Virus record (IMG/VR): IMGVR_UViG_3300017747_000749
Span: 1 to 24,873 of that record
Source of the DNA: a virus
Taxonomy: Duplodnaviria; Caudoviricetes
DNA: 24,873 nt
Reading direction: 5' to 3' (one strand)
Shown: piece after piece, positions 750 through 18,139 of the stretch
Layout: every line of letters starts with the position of its first letter
How positions within the stretch are numbered: the first letter of the stretch is position 1
Program-made: the position numbers and the translations under genes
The notes under the pieces: generated by a model
Database searches by the model: none
What the model saw: only the letters and a program-made list of their open reading frames with translations
Told to the model about the DNA's origin: nothing

Positions 750-955
750 CTTTTCCAGCTATTTTTATTTATTAAATACAATTCGTAAAGCTCTTCATCC
801 GTAAGATTATGTAAATTACTCCAACTTGTACTTCCGTATGGTTCGCAAAATGAATGTCCTGCTTTTTTAACTAATGGATGGTTAAATGCATCGTAATAAG
901 GAGACCTGCCCTTTACCATATCTTGCAGTTCTTTTGTTGTTAATTCTATTTTCAT
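746..955 (-). CDS. hypothetical protein
   Basis: 69-aa ORF with ATGA overlaps at both ends. Confidence 0.7.
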   Translation of the reverse strand: MKIELTTKELQDMVKGRSPYYDAFNHPLVKKAGHSFCEPYGSTSWSNLHNLTDEELYELYLINKNSWKR

Positions 956-1632
956 AGCATTTGAATTAGTGCGTTGTAATACTCACGAGCAAGTTCAATC
1001 TTCTCTTTTATCTGCTCGATTACCTGTTCGTCTTTTTGTACATAGAAAACTTTAACTCTGCGGTTCTTTGGTATATGTGAAAACTGATGTTTGCTCTCTA
1101 CTTCTTCACGCAAATCTAAGTCCTCGTCAAGTTTGTGAAGTTTCCAATGCGCTCTGCGGATTTCGTCTTCTACCATTTCGATAGGAGTATCTATAAGGCA
1201 GTAGCAAAGCATTGACTGATTCTTGCCAGTAAGCCACATATAACCCTGAAGCTGATAGAAATAGTCTTTGTTAGGTATTTCCGTATCAAAAAACGGAAAG
1301 GTAGTAGCATCCCAAGAGCTTTTTACGTCTAACAATACATCCTCCGTGTTTACGTCAGGTGTTCCTGTTATCCAATCGTTCTCAAAATACTCTTCGTTCT
1401 TGTAGATAAATTTGACGTCTAAGACATCATTGACTAACGAGATAGATTCGTCTTCAACTTGAATACCTTTGTCCGTGTAACGGCTTGAAAACTCCTTACG
1501 GATGCCATATTTATGTTCAAGAACTAACTCGTGAATGTAAGTCTTTGCAGTCTGAGACAAGAACTCGCCTTTTGAGCGTGGTGTAGCCATCAGTTTCCCG
1601 ATGGCACTACACCTAATTTTGAGAGTCTTCAT
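952..1632 (-). CDS. YqaJ / lambda-exonuclease family recombinase
   Basis: RCSAIG, G..E, GTPD, DVK and YYQLQGYM-type motifs; adjacent to ERF. Confidence 0.85.
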   Translation of the reverse strand: MKTLKIRCSAIGKLMATPRSKGEFLSQTAKTYIHELVLEHKYGIRKEFSSRYTDKGIQVEDESISLVNDVLDVKFIYKNEEYFENDWITGTPDVNTEDVLLDVKSSWDATTFPFFDTEIPNKDYFYQLQGYMWLTGKNQSMLCYCLIDTPIEMVEDEIRRAHWKLHKLDEDLDLREEVESKHQFSHIPKNRRVKVFYVQKDEQVIEQIKEKIELAREYYNALIQML

Positions 1633-2156
1633 AGAGCGTTTAAGATGTCGATTTGACCTTCAGTTAATGCAAACGATGCTTCGAGCTTCTCACGAGTGTA
1701 CTCGCCTTTTGCTATGGCTTGGACTGCCGCTGCAAATCTCTTTTGGTCTATGGCAGGAAGTTTCTTCTCGGTTTTAACTTGCTCTCCTGATGCATCCGTG
1801 TCTTTGTCGGTTACTAAACCAAGAGCTGCTGATAATGCGTAACGTCTAAAATAAGTTACTCCGCTACCAAAAGACTGAAAGTCATTCATTCCCTTTAGTT
1901 GTACATAAGGTATAGCTACTGCACTTGTCATATTCTCGCCAGTCTCAACGTGAAATATCATTGTTTCTAAACCAGTATCTCCATCCTTTGTAAAGATGTT
2001 TTGAGTAAATCCGAGTCCGTGTTTTTTTAGCAACGGATTGATTACCTCAAAGATTTTAGGCAAGTCAGCATAAGAATAGCCGTAGCCTTGTGTTGCCTTG
2101 TGGATTACAGGCACTTCTTGTTGGAATGCAGCCAACGATTTTAATAGATTTTTCAT
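1629..2156 (-). CDS. erf: ERF-family ssDNA annealing protein
   Basis: YSYADL and QSFGSGVTYFRRYALSAALGL..DKDTD signature. Confidence 0.9.
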   Translation of the reverse strand: MKNLLKSLAAFQQEVPVIHKATQGYGYSYADLPKIFEVINPLLKKHGLGFTQNIFTKDGDTGLETMIFHVETGENMTSAVAIPYVQLKGMNDFQSFGSGVTYFRRYALSAALGLVTDKDTDASGEQVKTEKKLPAIDQKRFAAAVQAIAKGEYTREKLEASFALTEGQIDILNAL

Positions 2157-2179
2157 AGCGTAAATATTAAATGTTTAGA

Positions 2180-3107: not shown

Positions 3108-3796
3108 AACTCAAGTTTTAATTGTAGTTTTTCTATTGGGATAAATTCTTGATTAATTTTATCACTTTGCTGATAATTAAACCCTGATTTTTGTTCGTTT
3201 TTTGGATAAGGTTCTTGATTCCAAATTGTTTTTAAATTGTCATCGTAAATAATTAGATACCTGTGCTTTCTTGATTTTATTCTCCATTCACCTTTTAAAC
3301 CCTTGCACTTTCCTCTTTGTAATTTTATAAATGAACCGTCTTCTTGTAGGATAAAAAAATCTTTTTTTTGTGAAGTCAATCCGTAGTATTGAAAATTACA
3401 GGCTTGGTAAATATATCCACTATGATAATCACTATCTGCATACGTCAACAATGCAACCACATTTTTTATTTTTCTCAATAATCTAATGCTTGATGATAAG
3501 AAAAACGATGTGATATTTTTTTCGTGTTTATGTGGGTTCAGACATAATCTACCAAGCTCCATAAAACCTTCTAAATTGTATGTATCTAATCCAAAACAAC
3601 CTTTGGCAATTTCTTTTGCTGACACACTATGAAAAATACATACACCAACCAACAAATTAGTTTCTTTTTCGATTAAACCAAAATTAATACCACTTCTAAA
3701 ATTTCCTTCTTCGTGTAAATAATGGTACTCATCTAATAGCTTTTTAGCACTATTCCTGCTGATTTTTTCAATTATATATTTTTCCTTCAATTTCAT
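3104..3796 (-). CDS. Mom-family DNA adenine modification protein (GNAT-like)
   Basis: HYLH, ELGRLC, SFFLS, LTYAD and HSGYIYQACNF motifs typical of Mu Mom homologues. Confidence 0.8.
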   Translation of the reverse strand: MKLKEKYIIEKISRNSAKKLLDEYHYLHEEGNFRSGINFGLIEKETNLLVGVCIFHSVSAKEIAKGCFGLDTYNLEGFMELGRLCLNPHKHEKNITSFFLSSSIRLLRKIKNVVALLTYADSDYHSGYIYQACNFQYYGLTSQKKDFFILQEDGSFIKLQRGKCKGLKGEWRIKSRKHRYLIIYDDNLKTIWNQEPYPKNEQKSGFNYQQSDKINQEFIPIEKLQLKLEL

Positions 3797-3807
3797 AGCG
3801 TGTTTTT

Positions 3808-6402: not shown

Positions 6403-6813
6403 CTAACTTGCATTTTGTTTCGTTTGTTGAAAACTCATTTGATGGTCGTATCTTCCTTCGTTTAACCAACGTCTGATTCTTCGTAGTTTTTCTAAGTTAC
6501 TGGCTTTTGCTATATCGTCAAAGATATTCCGTCTTTGTCTACTAAACGTCAACGGCTCAGACATTAGCTCCTGACAAGATTCAGTTATTCCACGATACAA
6601 TTTGTCGTTCTTTAACTCTTCGTGTTTCCGTATGGAGTGAATTACAGTTGCGTGATTTCGGTTAAAAATTCTGCCTATCTGCGACAATGTAAGCTGATTT
6701 GTTTTGTACAATGCCCAACATAAATAGTGTCTTCTAAAGACGTAGAAATGCTCTCTGCTCTTTCCATTTAAACCTTCCGACTCAATGTATTCTTTTACTT
6801 GTTCTAAGTTCAT
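6403..6813 (-). CDS. DnaA C-terminal-like HTH protein
   Basis: TLSQIGRIFNRNHATVIHSIRK matches the DnaA domain IV pattern; no AAA+ domain. Confidence 0.8.
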   Translation of the reverse strand: MNLEQVKEYIESEGLNGKSREHFYVFRRHYLCWALYKTNQLTLSQIGRIFNRNHATVIHSIRKHEELKNDKLYRGITESCQELMSEPLTFSRQRRNIFDDIAKASNLEKLRRIRRWLNEGRYDHQMSFQQTKQNAS

Positions 6814-6956
6814 AGCGGTTTAATTATAAATTTTCCATCGTTGTACCTTCCTGATTCTATTAAGTCCATTTTTTTCCAGTAACATAGACTCTTTGAAGTG
6901 AATATCCACTCTTGGACTACTGCAAGTCCGACTTGGTATGTAAGTTTAAATCTCAT
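6810..6956 (-). CDS. 48-aa hypothetical protein
   Basis: Read by hand: MRFKLTYQVGLAVVQEWIFTSKSLCYWKKMDLIESGRYNDGKFIIKPL; ATGA overlaps on both sides. Confidence 0.65.
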   Translation of the reverse strand: MRFKLTYQVGLAVVQEWIFTSKSLCYWKKMDLIESGRYNDGKFIIKPL

Positions 6957-7027
6957 AGCTTGGTGTATTTAATTTCGCAAATTCTGTTATATAAATCGTA
7001 ATTAAAGTTTGTCCAAAAACGTTCCAT
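6953..7027 (-). CDS. 24-aa peptide
   Basis: MERFWTNFNYDLYNRICEIKYTKL; 3' part of the listed 6953..7258 ORF, starting just after the 7038 stop. Confidence 0.5.
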   Translation of the reverse strand: MERFWTNFNYDLYNRICEIKYTKL

Positions 7028-7563: not shown

Positions 7564-7735
7564 TTTCTTCGATTGTTTCAATGTTTTCTAAAATACCCAA
7601 TACCGCATTCCATTGTGCAGATGCATAAGTTGTTGATTCGTGTTTACGACCATACATTCTGCGTAACTCGGTAAATTCAAAGTAAAGAGTCTGCTCTTCT
7701 CCTTTAATAAATTTGATAATTTCTTCTTTTGTCAT
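7550..7735 (-). CDS. first gene of early operon, hypothetical
   Basis: Start revised to MTKEEII, downstream of the promoter at 7772-7779 and within an ACGCTATG motif. Confidence 0.7.
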   Translation of the reverse strand: MTKEEIIKFIKGEEQTLYFEFTELRRMYGRKHESTTYASAQWNAVLGILENIETIEENENA

Positions 7736-7771
7736 AGCGTTTAATTTTTGTGTTTGTAAATTAGTTATATG

Positions 7772-7801
7772 CAAATATATATACTTATTCTGAATTATCA
7801 A
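7772..7801 (-). promoter_or_regulatory. early promoter TTG-N19-TATATTTG
   Basis: Bacteroidota -33/-7 consensus in an AT-rich intergenic region. Confidence 0.75.
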
Positions 7802-7884
7802 CAAAAAAGTTCCGTTTTCTACAAAATATTTTTAAATTCCTTTATTTTACAAGGCTTTCAGGCGCAAAATTTTTTTATATTAAA

Positions 7885-7936
7885 TAAAAAAAGCCTCCAA
7901 ATGAAGGCTCTTTACGCTATGAGTAGAATGGTTAGG
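7885..7936 (-). ncRNA. putative ~50-nt antisense sRNA with terminator
   Basis: TATATTTG at 7941-7948, then seed UCAUAGCGUAAA, then hairpin AGCCUUC-AUUU-GGAGGCU and U-tract; ends approximate. Confidence 0.6.
7886..7909 (-). terminator. intrinsic terminator
   Basis: 7-bp stem with one GU pair, followed by a U-tract. Confidence 0.75.
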
Positions 7937-7940
7937 TAAG

Positions 7941-7948
7941 CAAATATA
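7941..7948 (-). promoter_or_regulatory. Bacteroidota -7 element (TATATTTG) with no downstream ORF
   Basis: Same octamer as the other early promoters; followed only by about 55 nt ending in a terminator. Confidence 0.55.
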
Positions 7949-8983
7949 CTAAAAAATGTGTGTCAAACGAGCAACCTGTCCAAATTCTTTGTGATGAATG
8001 AAGCCTTCAACTGCTTTCGGAACACCCGTGTAGCCGTTTCGGTGATGCCAGCTATCAGTTCCTGAAGGTGAGCGCAATGATTCTACTGTAACTCCGATGT
8101 AATCCTTTGACGTTTTGTGATGAACGTGGTGCGTGTAAACGTAGCGGTGCTTGGTCTGACTCCATTCAACAGGAAACTCAGTTGCCATCAATAAAGGTAA
8201 GTCTTGATGTTTCGCTCCATCTCCGTGAGTCGTTCCGATAAGGTTCTTTCCGTATTGGAAGCCTTTTCGATGTGCAATAGAGCAGTCAAAAGATATGTTC
8301 TTAGCATCTTTAAACCAAGTCTGAATAACGTCAGCAAGAAAGAAGCCGTGAGTATAATCGTGATTTGAGGGATTGAAAGTGAAATGTACATCAGCCACCC
8401 CAATGAGTTTTTCAAGAATTTCGACATAAAGTTTTTTAGCTATTAGAAAGTTTGAGTACCACATTCCATCCGTGTCTTGTGGAGTTCCTGACGTTGTAGT
8501 CCGTTTTGGAGTATCGATGTGCAGAATGTCGTTTCCGCCTATAAATAGAATCTTGTCGATATGAAATCCGCTTGCTTTGTCTAAAATGCCTTGTACGCCT
8601 TCTAAGACACGTTGTACTGCGATTTGGTTGTTATATACTTCTCCTACTTCGAAAGCATCGCAGAGCTTACCTATGTGTATGTCTGCAGGGTCTATGACTA
8701 ATAAGTGTCCGTCTTTGCTTTGAGTCCGTGTTATTGTAGGATATTTCGGTGCATAAACACGAATCTCATCTAATATACTGGCACGAATCTTCTCGTAATT
8801 CTGCTCTTCCTGTTCCTTAAAGTTTGGATTTTTAAAGAACAATGAAGCATTCTTTGATTTTAGCCAACCGTGTTTAACGTCAGCATCGTTTAAGCCCATC
8901 TCATTGGACTCTCTTTGAATTGCACGGTATTGAGAAACTATCTCAAATTCTTCTCGTGTAATTCTTGGTCTGAATTTACTCAT
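7949..8983 (-). CDS. calcineurin-like metallophosphoesterase
   Basis: DIH, GND, NHD, HGD and HVH metal-binding motifs in canonical order. Confidence 0.8.
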   Translation of the reverse strand: MSKFRPRITREEFEIVSQYRAIQRESNEMGLNDADVKHGWLKSKNASLFFKNPNFKEQEEQNYEKIRASILDEIRVYAPKYPTITRTQSKDGHLLVIDPADIHIGKLCDAFEVGEVYNNQIAVQRVLEGVQGILDKASGFHIDKILFIGGNDILHIDTPKRTTTSGTPQDTDGMWYSNFLIAKKLYVEILEKLIGVADVHFTFNPSNHDYTHGFFLADVIQTWFKDAKNISFDCSIAHRKGFQYGKNLIGTTHGDGAKHQDLPLLMATEFPVEWSQTKHRYVYTHHVHHKTSKDYIGVTVESLRSPSGTDSWHHRNGYTGVPKAVEGFIHHKEFGQVARLTHIF

Positions 8984-9417
8984 AAAGGAATTTTAGAAAA
9001 CTTTAGAAGCCAGTTTGCAATAAAACCAGTTCCGAAGCCTATTATAAACAGCCACAAGTTAGGCTTTTTTTTGTTATCTCTTTCTTTTTTCCATTTAACC
9101 ACCTCTACTTTTTCAACCATTTTCAATGTATCTCGTTTTAGTCTATACTCAATACGTGTTTCTAATCGCGTTTTAGGCACTTTAGAAGCCTTGTAACGCA
9201 CTATCGTATCTTTTTGGACTAACACCCTTTCCCACATAATAGAATCTCTTAAAACGTACGGAATTGAGTCAATCGAAGTTATCGTAATTGTATCAGCAAT
9301 AGTGTCGCATATGTAACCTTTCTTTATTGCTTTGCGTAAATGGTAGTTTGCCGAGCAAGAAGTCAGCAAAAACACGAACAAAAGGTATTTAGCTACCGAT
9401 TTCAAAGTGCATTCCAT
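8980..9417 (-). CDS. lipoprotein, probable unimolecular spanin
   Basis: Signal peptide with lipobox LTSC, beta-rich middle and C-terminal TM; in the lysis cassette; exact start uncertain. Confidence 0.7.
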   Translation of the reverse strand: MECTLKSVAKYLLFVFLLTSCSANYHLRKAIKKGYICDTIADTITITSIDSIPYVLRDSIMWERVLVQKDTIVRYKASKVPKTRLETRIEYRLKRDTLKMVEKVEVVKWKKERDNKKKPNLWLFIIGFGTGFIANWLLKFSKIPL

Positions 9418-9904
9418 AAATTGGTTTTTTATTTTTTACTGACCACGACACAGAGCCGCTGCCTAATTTATAATATCGTTGCGCTTCTGACATAGAACCA
9501 AATTCTTTATTATTATCAGTAACACATATTACTTTTTTACTTCTATTGTGTTCACTACCAAACTTACCTTTATAATGAAGTGGTCTGTATTTTTTCATTC
9601 CACTATCATACATATGCTGAATGTTTTCAGAAAATGAACACCATTCTAAATTTGATAATTCGTTGTTTTGCTTGTTACCATCTTTATGGTTCACATAATT
9701 TTTACCTTCTACTTGCTCAATAAATGCAAAAGCTAATGCTCTATGTATAAAACGACCGGCTTGTTTGCCGTTAATTTTTACACTTACACATTGATAACCG
9801 CTATTTGACAAATGTTGCTTCAAAATTTTACCTCGTTTGTTGTATACATTTCCGTTTTCGTCTACAAAATAATCATTTCCTAAATACTCAATTTGCTTTT
9901 TCAT
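9389..9904 (-). CDS. HNH homing endonuclease (NUMOD4-like / HNH / NUMOD1-like)
   Basis: HRALA..F, VNHKDGNKQNNELSNLEW and FGSMSEA motifs; start revised to MKKQIE. Confidence 0.9.
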   Translation of the reverse strand: MKKQIEYLGNDYFVDENGNVYNKRGKILKQHLSNSGYQCVSVKINGKQAGRFIHRALAFAFIEQVEGKNYVNHKDGNKQNNELSNLEWCSFSENIQHMYDSGMKKYRPLHYKGKFGSEHNRSKKVICVTDNNKEFGSMSEAQRYYKLGSGSVSWSVKNKKPIYGMHFEIGS

Positions 9905-9918
9905 ATATCTTTTTATTG

Positions 9919-9926
9919 CAAAGATA
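9919..9926 (-). promoter_or_regulatory. -7 element (TATCTTTG) for the HNH gene
   Basis: TAnnTTTG about 15 nt upstream of ATG 9904. Confidence 0.6.
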
Positions 9927-9946
9927 TAACTATTATGCATATAGAG

Positions 9947-14836: not shown

Positions 14837-14875
14837 ATTAAAGTAACTAAGATTGTAGCGATTTGTTTTAAATGC

Positions 14876-14899
14876 AAAAAGGGTAGCCAAAGCCACCCT
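14876..14899 (-). terminator. intrinsic terminator
   Basis: AGGGUGGC-UUUG-GCUACCCU stem followed by U residues. Confidence 0.75.
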
Positions 14900-14923
14900 C
14901 TTTACACGCTATGAAGAAAACGA

Positions 14924-15484
14924 TTATGCAGTTACGATAGTAGCCGTTCCGAATACATCTCCTGCTGAACCTGCAAGACCTGCTTCGTTAGTACAATCAA
15001 GAAGATTGGCGAGCAAAGTCTCGGTCGCTACAAAAGTCAAGGTATATCCGTTTAGGTCACCCATTGCAGTACCATTTGACACGTTAGCAGTAGTCAATTC
15101 TGAGCCGTGTTCAAGACCCATTAAGAAGAATTGGTTGTTGCGGTTGCGAACTACGATGTGCGGTCTTCCGTAAGCTAACAATTTAACTGACTTGTGTGTA
15201 GTAGCATCTTGCTTCTTTAAAGTCATTGTTAAAGTTTGCTCAACGAATGTAGTTCCGTTTTCACGAGAAGAGTTTACAACTTGCTCAAAAGAGTTAGTTC
15301 CTTTAAGTTCGTATTTGTAGAGAGAAGATACGTTACCTACCGTGTCGATAGTATCAGTACCTGCTACATAAGCTACGTCAGTTTCAGGATTGAAATCCCC
15401 GTAGTTAATGAAGTATACTGCATCGATACCACCGACTGCGTCTTTACATACTTCCAAGCGTCCATTTGCTAAATCACAAGACAT
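14924..15484 (-). CDS. major structural protein, probably tail tube
   Basis: Beta-rich 186-aa protein after the capsid gene, with its own terminator; C...CKD.VGGI and GYTLTF motifs. Confidence 0.55.
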   Translation of the reverse strand: MSCDLANGRLEVCKDAVGGIDAVYFINYGDFNPETDVAYVAGTDTIDTVGNVSSLYKYELKGTNSFEQVVNSSRENGTTFVEQTLTMTLKKQDATTHKSVKLLAYGRPHIVVRNRNNQFFLMGLEHGSELTTANVSNGTAMGDLNGYTLTFVATETLLANLLDCTNEAGLAGSAGDVFGTATIVTA

Positions 15485-17602: not shown

Positions 17603-17616
17603 TATTTTTATGTTTG
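17585..17616 (+). promoter_or_regulatory. host-type promoter TTTG-N20-TATGTTTG
   Basis: Full Bacteroidota -33/-7 consensus. Confidence 0.8.
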
Positions 17617-17630
17617 TCAAAAATTACGCT

Positions 17631-17777
17631 ATGAAAGCAACACAAAAACAAGTAGAACAAGCAAAACATTTTTTAAGCGCAATTTCTATGCTTATAGATA
17701 TGAAAGGAAAGAGTTATTATATGCCGCATATTCATTTGCTTTGGCAGGCTCTTTCGGAAGTAGAAATAGATAATTAA
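17631..17777 (+). CDS. 48-aa hypothetical (moron)
   Basis: MKATQKQVEQ...; follows the promoter; ACGCTATG start. Confidence 0.7.
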   Translation: MKATQKQVEQAKHFLSAISMLIDMKGKSYYMPHIHLLWQALSEVEIDN

Positions 17778-17785
17778 AAAACGCT

Positions 17786-18139
17786 ATGGGATGGACAACA
17801 CATTTTTGGAAGTGCAATAATTGTAATTACGAAACTGTTTACACAAGTAGACAAGCACATCCGAGTAAAAGTCATAAATGCAAAACAATAGAGCGTATGC
17901 AATTTGATATACATACATTTCAAAGAATGGATACTATTCTACATACAGGAGAAAGAGTAAAAGTAACTTGCGGAGACCAATATGAGTATTGGAAAAAAAG
18001 AGTAAATGACCGCATTAAGTACCTAACTCCTTTAATGAATGAAGTAAAAGAAAAAGGATTGAATCTTTGGTGTATATCTAAAGAGTTAAACGAGGAATGG
18101 ATACTGCTAATTGAATCAGTTGAATACCATAATTTTTAA
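17786..18139 (+). CDS. hypothetical protein with N-terminal zinc-finger-like motif (moron)
   Basis: CxxC...HxxxxHxC; ACGCTATG start; followed by terminator. Confidence 0.7.
   Translation: MGWTTHFWKCNNCNYETVYTSRQAHPSKSHKCKTIERMQFDIHTFQRMDTILHTGERVKVTCGDQYEYWKKRVNDRIKYLTPLMNEVKEKGLNLWCISKELNEEWILLIESVEYHNF

Follow-up and report, generated by a model that had tools for sequence, protein, structure and literature searches.

A predicted anti-start-codon RNA at the 3' ends of late transcripts of a phage with a likely Bacteroidota host

Genomic setting

The window, i.e. the whole stretch of DNA analysed here, is a 24.9-kb virus record with a completeness of ~80%, and its minus strand carries nearly all genes. 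The following features frame the element described below.

24.8 to 7.95 kb, minus strand: tail, head, portal and lysis genes
7949..8983, minus strand: phrog_704 gene (annotated DNA repair exonuclease) that closes the late/lysis block and whose 3' UTR holds RNA1
7772..7801, minus strand: early promoter TTG-N19-TATATTTG, downstream of the RNA1 terminator
7.7 to 0.1 kb, minus strand: replication/recombination genes (helicase loader, primase/helicase, Mom, NinG, Erf, exonuclease, SSB)

The TAnnTTTG boxes, the A-rich start regions and the best cultured matches to Flavobacterium phages (64% for the 7949-8983 protein) indicate that the host is likely a member of the Bacteroidota. Bacteroidota mRNAs lack Shine-Dalgarno sequences. 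An HNH endonuclease gene (window 9389-9940, minus strand) sits between the endolysin gene and the next gene of the lysis block. An earlier sequence-only reading of this DNA had recognised no protein repressor, and neither a repressor nor an antirepressor is recognisable among the 40 window proteins. In five near-complete relatives a search for tyrosine integrases of the PF00589 type gave none, and an HTH_3 protein is encoded by only one of the five.

Anatomy of RNA1

Directly after the TAG of ORF 8983-7949 begins an element, RNA1, with the following parts.

7941..7948, minus strand: Bacteroidota sigma-A -7 box TATATTTG
7884..7936, minus strand: RNA1, a predicted small RNA of ~53 nt (putative +1 at ~7936), also the 3' end of the late/lysis transcript
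7940-7923, minus strand: leader CUUACCUAACCAUUCUAC
7911..7922, minus strand: seed UCAUAGCGU(AAA), i.e. UCAUAGCGUAAA, antisense to (UUU)ACGCUAUGA start regions
7884..7913, minus strand: intrinsic terminator, an 11-pair hairpin (7913-7888) plus U-tract

The sequence-only reading had placed a box, leader, seed, hairpin and U-tract here on the minus strand, and the coordinates of all of them hold. According to an excerpt of PMC9723704, the TAnnTTTG box of Flavobacterium psychrophilum occupies positions -12 to -5; the +1 of RNA1 would therefore lie near 7936 and its length would be ~53 nt. The -33 element had been called unclear, and no TTG is found at 19-21 nt from the RNA1 box. The predicted fold of RNA1 has an energy of -13.3 kcal/mol (z ~ -3), equalled by 0-1 of 200 shuffles. 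Nucleotides 1-9 of the seed are unpaired with a probability of 0.68-1.0 in this fold, and nucleotide 10 with 0.22. The proposed 12-nt seed is fully complementary to its best target, as claimed. Its last AAA is predicted to lie in the base of the stem, leaving ~9 nt single-stranded.

The stem uses G-U pairs that are workable on the minus strand only. Across 20 sequences 98% of the stem cells are paired, with one-sided changes only; in the CG clade (named, like the UU clade, after its seed) no two-sided changes were found and the covariation signal is no better than in shuffles. The hairpin is a modelled structure, resting on folding and on the differently sequenced hairpins of other clades. Of 18 public sequencing runs, all in contig form, none contains half of the words. 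Contigs of six runs were aligned and reveal no ends, strand or level; the aligned parts of two contigs from one RNA run (one study) stop at 7941, and they were not used as evidence.

To call RNA1 a stand-alone gene, as had been done, is an overstatement, because its box abuts the last late gene and its terminator is common to both. That it is driven by a host promoter is partly borne out by the -7 box, conserved in 53 of 77 relatives, but nine relatives keep the seed and U-run without a box, the second copy of the element (RNA2, below) is boxless, and both copies lie at late-gene 3' ends. The element had also been described as free of ORFs. A plus-strand ORF (7769-7939) does overlap it; the frame that starts at the antisense ATG of the seed, on the other hand, is unconserved and ranges from 1 to 120 codons, and a conserved antisense micro-ORF was rejected for lack of a conserved product. 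A role as leader of the early operon was likewise rejected, because that operon is served by a complete promoter of its own, situated downstream of the terminator of RNA1.

A second copy behind the tail-tube gene

A second seed and terminator, missed by the sequence-only reading, lies at 14914-14876, directly after the stop of gene 15484-14924.

14875..14923, minus strand: RNA2, promoterless second copy with seed UCAUAGCGU (14914-14906), hairpin and U-tract, located within the 3' UTR of the putative tail-tube gene
14924..15484, minus strand: predicted major tail-tube gene (weak fold evidence), parent transcript of RNA2

The 15484-14924 protein models, weakly, as a tail-tube-like fold (best E 1.2e-3), and its top matches are mostly tail, tube or baseplate proteins. 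The RNA2 seed core is kept in 104 of 113 loci. RNA2 is of the CG type in 12/13 loci with a CG RNA1 and in 0/10 with a UU RNA1, and in several UU-clade phages it has no AUG complement. In five whole relatives the seed precedes the RNA1 and RNA2 terminators (decayed at the second in G004), and it is absent in all five from those that follow the capsid gene and the early operon. A generic terminator box was rejected on these grounds.

Conservation among relatives

The RNA1 sample consisted of the best 80 of 588 relatives by the upstream protein, three of which end too early, leaving 77 that were scored. The seed is conserved: seed plus U-run are retained in 62/77 of this sample, and in 53/77 they are accompanied by a -7 box directly after the stop. 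The 15 loci without the element comprise ten of a single clade, four with an inserted ORF and one with a UCAUUAG variant. In the ten-locus clade (L033, L035, L036, L038, L040-L043, L047, L054) a TATCTTTG box and a small gene replace the element after the phosphoesterase-like gene, and CT.ATG is found at none of its 26 distinct downstream starts. In L011, L060, L064 and L067 the phosphoesterase-like gene is interrupted at its end by the inserted ORF; in two of the three that were checked (L060, L064) this end, followed by the element, reappears ~685 nt further on. The element was not found in Lillamyvirus snork6-1, which has the neighbouring gene, nor in either of the two loci obtained by a phosphoesterase search of genome contigs.

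UCAUAG is nearly invariant, and the leader (4-19 nt), seed extension and hairpin are all variable. Extensions among relatives are CGUA, CGUGAG, CUAAUU, UUUUUUGG, UUAUUUGG and UUAGAUUG, and C-to-U seed variants (L023, L024 and seven RNA2 copies) retain a G-U pair. The gap between box and seed is never below 4 nt and is exactly 4 nt in 19/54 boxed elements of the family and in 14/54 of the viral hairpin hits described below; such a minimum would be expected if the seed has to be part of a transcript.

Predicted targets in the window

The start regions that match the seed are listed here.

2153..2164, minus strand: erf start (ERF ssDNA-annealing protein), 12-nt match, with TATATTTG (2187-2180) just upstream
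7732..7740, minus strand: first early gene (61 aa), 9-nt match at its start
3793..3801, minus strand: Mom-family gene start, 9-nt match
6810..6817, minus strand: start of a 136-aa gene with a DnaA_C-like HTH, 8-nt match
6952..6959, minus strand: start of an early gene of 48 aa (GCUAUGAG), weaker target with an 8-nt match
952..960, minus strand: start of an early gene of 69 aa, weaker target with a single G-U in the pairing
17624..17634, plus strand: first gene of an opposite-strand two-gene cassette, 11-nt match, own TATGTTTG box at 17609-17616
17781..17788, plus strand: second cassette gene (117 aa), 8-nt match

The complementarities originally claimed hold: 12 nt with 2164-2153, 11 nt with 17624-17634 and 9 nt each with 7740-7732 and 3801-3793. 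More starts match than had been noticed, namely 17786 (plus strand), 6813, 6956 and, with a G-U pair, 955. ACGCTATG occurs seven times in the window against an expectation of 0.62 +/- 0.72, a number reached by none of 100 shuffles. All five of its sense-strand occurrences are early-type start codons (2156 erf, 3796 Mom-like, 7735, 17631 and 17786), the other two being the antisense copies in RNA1 and RNA2. When the 41 start regions of the window are ranked, the ten best duplexes all belong to early or cassette genes (p 0.0098), but raw duplex energy alone is unspecific, as G-rich stretches elsewhere in the window do equally well or better. The plus-strand cassette (17609-18139) lies inside the head region, comes with its own box and is followed by a hairpin, and both of its starts are tagged; a similar insert is present in G003.

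The start tag distinguishes early from late genes

Tags were counted over distinct contexts with our own start caller, which is blind to positions -4 to -1. In relatives with a CG seed CGCT.ATG is found at 71/371 early starts (19%) and at 0/205 late starts. It is found at 6/196 early starts of relatives with a UU seed and at none of 146 sampled Bacteroidota host starts. A Flavobacterium phage in which the element was not found likewise has RRYT.ATG, the UU-clade tag, on 20/57 of its starts. In Flavobacterium johnsoniae an A at -3 favours initiation, as stated in an excerpt of PMC6847099, and keeping a G there may therefore carry a cost.

A sigma-70/ECF-like gene of 175 aa with its own TAnnTTTG box (L672:4485-5012, minus strand) follows the early operon in relatives, just past the left end of the window. 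It probably encodes a late sigma factor, and CT.ATG is absent from all 20 of its distinct starts. A late ECF-type promoter motif was sought and nothing convincing emerged. In L002, L005, L007, L014, L017 and L058 small early genes between the exonuclease and SSB genes repeat the start contexts aatcagaataagATG or acaacaagaacaATG, which do not match the seed and are possibly a second tag or a cassette array.

Seed and target vary together

Orthologous erf starts were compared in 37 distinct pairs. The mean duplex energy of CG erf starts is -14.1 with CG RNAs against -9.2 with UU RNAs; that of UU erf starts is -12.8 with UU RNAs against -3.6 with CG RNAs. In UU-clade phages RNA and erf oppose each other along most of 20 positions. 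CG versus UU is approximately one split on the tree of the upstream protein, so that the Fisher tests overcount, and the rows are related. Among the 15 non-CG pairs, duplex energy is better for the phage's own RNA than for permuted ones (p 0.0002), an advantage that is not significant for the same pairs in gapless register (p 0.11).

An unrelated family (seven loci, with one weak protein match to the window) has the seed UCAUAGG. It carries CCT.ATG on 21/93 same-strand starts and on 0/23 starts of the tail-gene strand, with GCT.ATG on 1/93 and the G predicted at -4 on none of the 93. For a broader comparison 15 lineages were used, i.e. 21 clusters minus L206, L194, L553, L212, L169 and L233, dropped beforehand as probable opposite-strand gene starts or doubtful elements. 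In this test, underpowered and run on partial loci, the own-seed advantage is not significant (p 0.067, 0.25 and 0.08) and is carried by two of them, the CG/UU family and the UCAUAGG family. Self-targeting is therefore supported for these two families and not for the whole class.

A wider class of box-UCAUAG-terminator elements

The pattern TATATTTG-N-TCATAG-N-T6 was scored at 120 viral loci from 6/64 parts of the collection, near-duplicates included. A terminator hairpin is found at 54 of them (45%) as compared to 6/120 for a control hexamer; an antisense frame of at least 40 codons accompanies 12 of the 54, and some of these are real gene starts of the opposite strand. In genomes hits with a hairpin amount to 21/46 in Bacteroidota and 1/74 in others (18% of the sampled hits). 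We estimate 1300 viral and 6600 genome stretches holding the pattern.

Three of 17 scanned hairpin-bearing genome loci are FopS, a small RNA family of Bacteroides thetaiotaomicron. A true FopS copy (82 bits) was also met in a 177-kb viral record (L573, G007:C1:46042-46112), with a near-identical sequence (L592) in another viral cluster. Seven Sphingobacteriaceae loci (L415, L418, L420, L444, L472, L501, L514) share a conserved chromosomal small-RNA candidate composed of box, 5' hairpin, UUUUUCAUAGGUAGAUGU and terminator, for which none of three scanned loci gave an Rfam match at gathering score. Chromosomal candidates of the Flavobacteriaceae (L411, L468, L484) have UUUUUCAUAGCAAUUUU followed by a terminator, two of them with a doubled UCAUAG, and have no Rfam match.

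Proposed function and alternatives

We conclude that the element is very probably a pairing RNA aimed at the early starts of the phage itself. The sequence-only reading had put forward a translational repressor RNA; as far as sequence comparison can tell, conservation, the segregation of the tag between early and late genes and the co-variation of seed and target support it well. That its main role is the late shut-off of early translation is, on balance, probable. The -7 box of RNA1 would give rise to small amounts of it, the bulk coming from the 3' end of the late/lysis transcript, and RNA2 would arise solely from the 3' UTR of the tail-tube mRNA. The exposed seed would pair across the AUG and block ribosome loading, as might be expected from the in vitro behaviour of FopS-10. 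As late transcription rises, RNA1 and RNA2 would shut down erf, the Mom-like gene, the first early gene and further accessory genes, and the late genes and the phage sigma-factor gene, having no tag, would escape. Against late shut-off speaks the sigma-A box, which would fire early, alongside the targets.

That same box, conserved in non-coding DNA (53/77), would suit RNA1 being made from a host-type promoter at the start of infection and either limiting the dose of early genes or providing an RNA-only switch for superinfection or the carrier state, with seed classes that correspond to immunity groups. A leader of at least 4 nt agrees with a genuine start site, the seeds do form distinct classes, HTH_3 is encoded by one relative in five, and the c4 RNA of P1/P7 sets heteroimmunity by antisense pairing (PMC12197685, in excerpt). 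This is the chief alternative, yet we consider such a role unlikely, given the absence of the PF00589 integrase from all five near-complete relatives, the boxless state of RNA2 and of nine RNA1 copies, and the missing -33 box. Of the putative timing or immunity switch suggested earlier, timing is favoured over immunity, as no tyrosine integrase was found in 5/5 near-complete relatives and an HTH_3 protein in 1/5 only.

Host mRNAs could be the main targets, with a FopS-like general anti-start-codon RNA freeing ribosomes for late mRNAs and the early-gene matches being secondary. The pattern is indeed present in Bacteroidota genomes (21/46 hairpins versus 1/74 in others), where some instances are FopS, and many phage lineages with U-rich seeds show no preference for their own genome. 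CGCT.ATG, however, is found on 0/146 sampled host starts as opposed to 19% of early phage starts, and the erf start tracks the RNA across clades, which makes host mRNAs improbable as the principal targets.

Both copies directly precede a terminator, as a protein-binding or antitermination box before late terminators might, and a pairing that activates translation is compatible with the sequence. Yet in five whole relatives the capsid-gene and early-operon terminators are without the seed, a protein box has no need for complementarity to start codons kilobases away, and activation is at odds with pairing that covers the AUG itself; we regard these options as highly improbable. Hardly any credence can be given to an ordinary terminator behind a chance or relic reversed start site (of a lost opposite-strand gene or micro-ORF), which the plus-strand hexapeptide frame, the overlapping 56-codon ORF and the 12/54 viral hairpin hits with long antisense frames, some of them real gene starts, might suggest, and which the unconserved product of a frame of 1 to 120 codons, the control hexamer (6/120 versus 54/120 hairpins) and stem G-U pairs that function on the minus strand only contradict.

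Returning to late shut-off by a self-targeting RNA, we tentatively propose a generalisation: Bacteroidota phages may switch from early to late expression by RNA barcodes, where late transcripts end in anti-start-codon seeds, early AUGs carry the matching tag, and both co-evolve as lineage codes (CG/CGCT, GG/CCT, U-rich/A-rich), forming a protein-free regulon on a UCAUAG scaffold common to host FopS-type RNAs. If the tag-matching seed acts as predicted, it would explain how early genes are turned off in small phages without a recognisable repressor, and would extend the FopS/GibS architecture far beyond Bacteroides. The erf/RNA pairs are available as natural compensatory pairs, and the element would offer a compact scaffold for gene silencing in Bacteroidota.

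Comparison with known RNA regulators

An Rfam scan of the window gave one chance match only. The FopS model (RF04319, cut-off at least 56 bits; R1/R1' seed) has no match in the window at E<=5 or E<=10, and the B. thetaiotaomicron control set and the viral record G007 score above the cut-off; c4/CI-type Rfam family models have no match in the window at E<=5. In the literature searched, which lay mostly outside subscription journals, we found no description of an RNA directed against the early start codons of the same phage in Bacteroidota phages.

In the excerpts of PMC11697453 and PMC7366714 drawn on here, FopS and GibS of B. thetaiotaomicron share with RNA1 the TAnnTTTG box and a 5' part with UCAU(A/G)G that is single-stranded, in RNA1 by prediction. 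In the same excerpt of PMC11697453 the terminator of FopS is its sole hairpin, as in the predicted fold of RNA1; FopS pairs at translation starts, often of the first genes of operons, and exists in several copies, all of which is predicted for RNA1 as well; one member is 3'-UTR-derived, like RNA2; and FopS-10 blocks translation in vitro. A FopS sequence is mentioned there in one Caudovirales phage, without study. The canonical sigma-ABfr promoter of FopS, as described there, combines the -7 TAnnTTTG with a -33 TTTG, whereas RNA1 has the conserved -7 box and no -33 element at the usual spacing. Unlike the long R1' of FopS, the RNA1 seed is short and GC-rich, and the reported FopS targets are host polysaccharide loci (PUL susC), in contrast to the phage's own early genes with co-varying tags predicted for RNA1.

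P22 Sar and P4 CI RNA are phage RNAs that repress an mRNA of their own phage by pairing. The c4 RNA of P1/P7, as presented in an excerpt of PMC12197685, also pairs with its own mRNA to repress it, as predicted for RNA1, and sets heteroimmunity by sequence class. It acts on antirepressor mRNA and its pairing sequences likely lie in loops, whereas here one seed, predicted to be linear and placed before the terminator, matches ~5-8 start codons, with no antirepressor among the 40 window proteins. According to the same excerpt, PreS (lambda) and VpdS (VP882) are, like RNA1, short trans-acting phage RNAs (~50-90 nt) supporting phage development; PreS acts on host dnaN and VpdS via Hfq, and the excerpt ascribes to neither of them the recognition of a common start-codon tag on the phage's early genes. 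The phage antisense RNAs covered in it control one switch gene or host targets, and here a single 9-nt seed, present twice at late 3' ends, matches a tag that marks a set of early genes and co-varies with it in relatives. By analogy, the element would work like FopS/GibS, and like c4 in repressing its own mRNA, and is a member of neither family.
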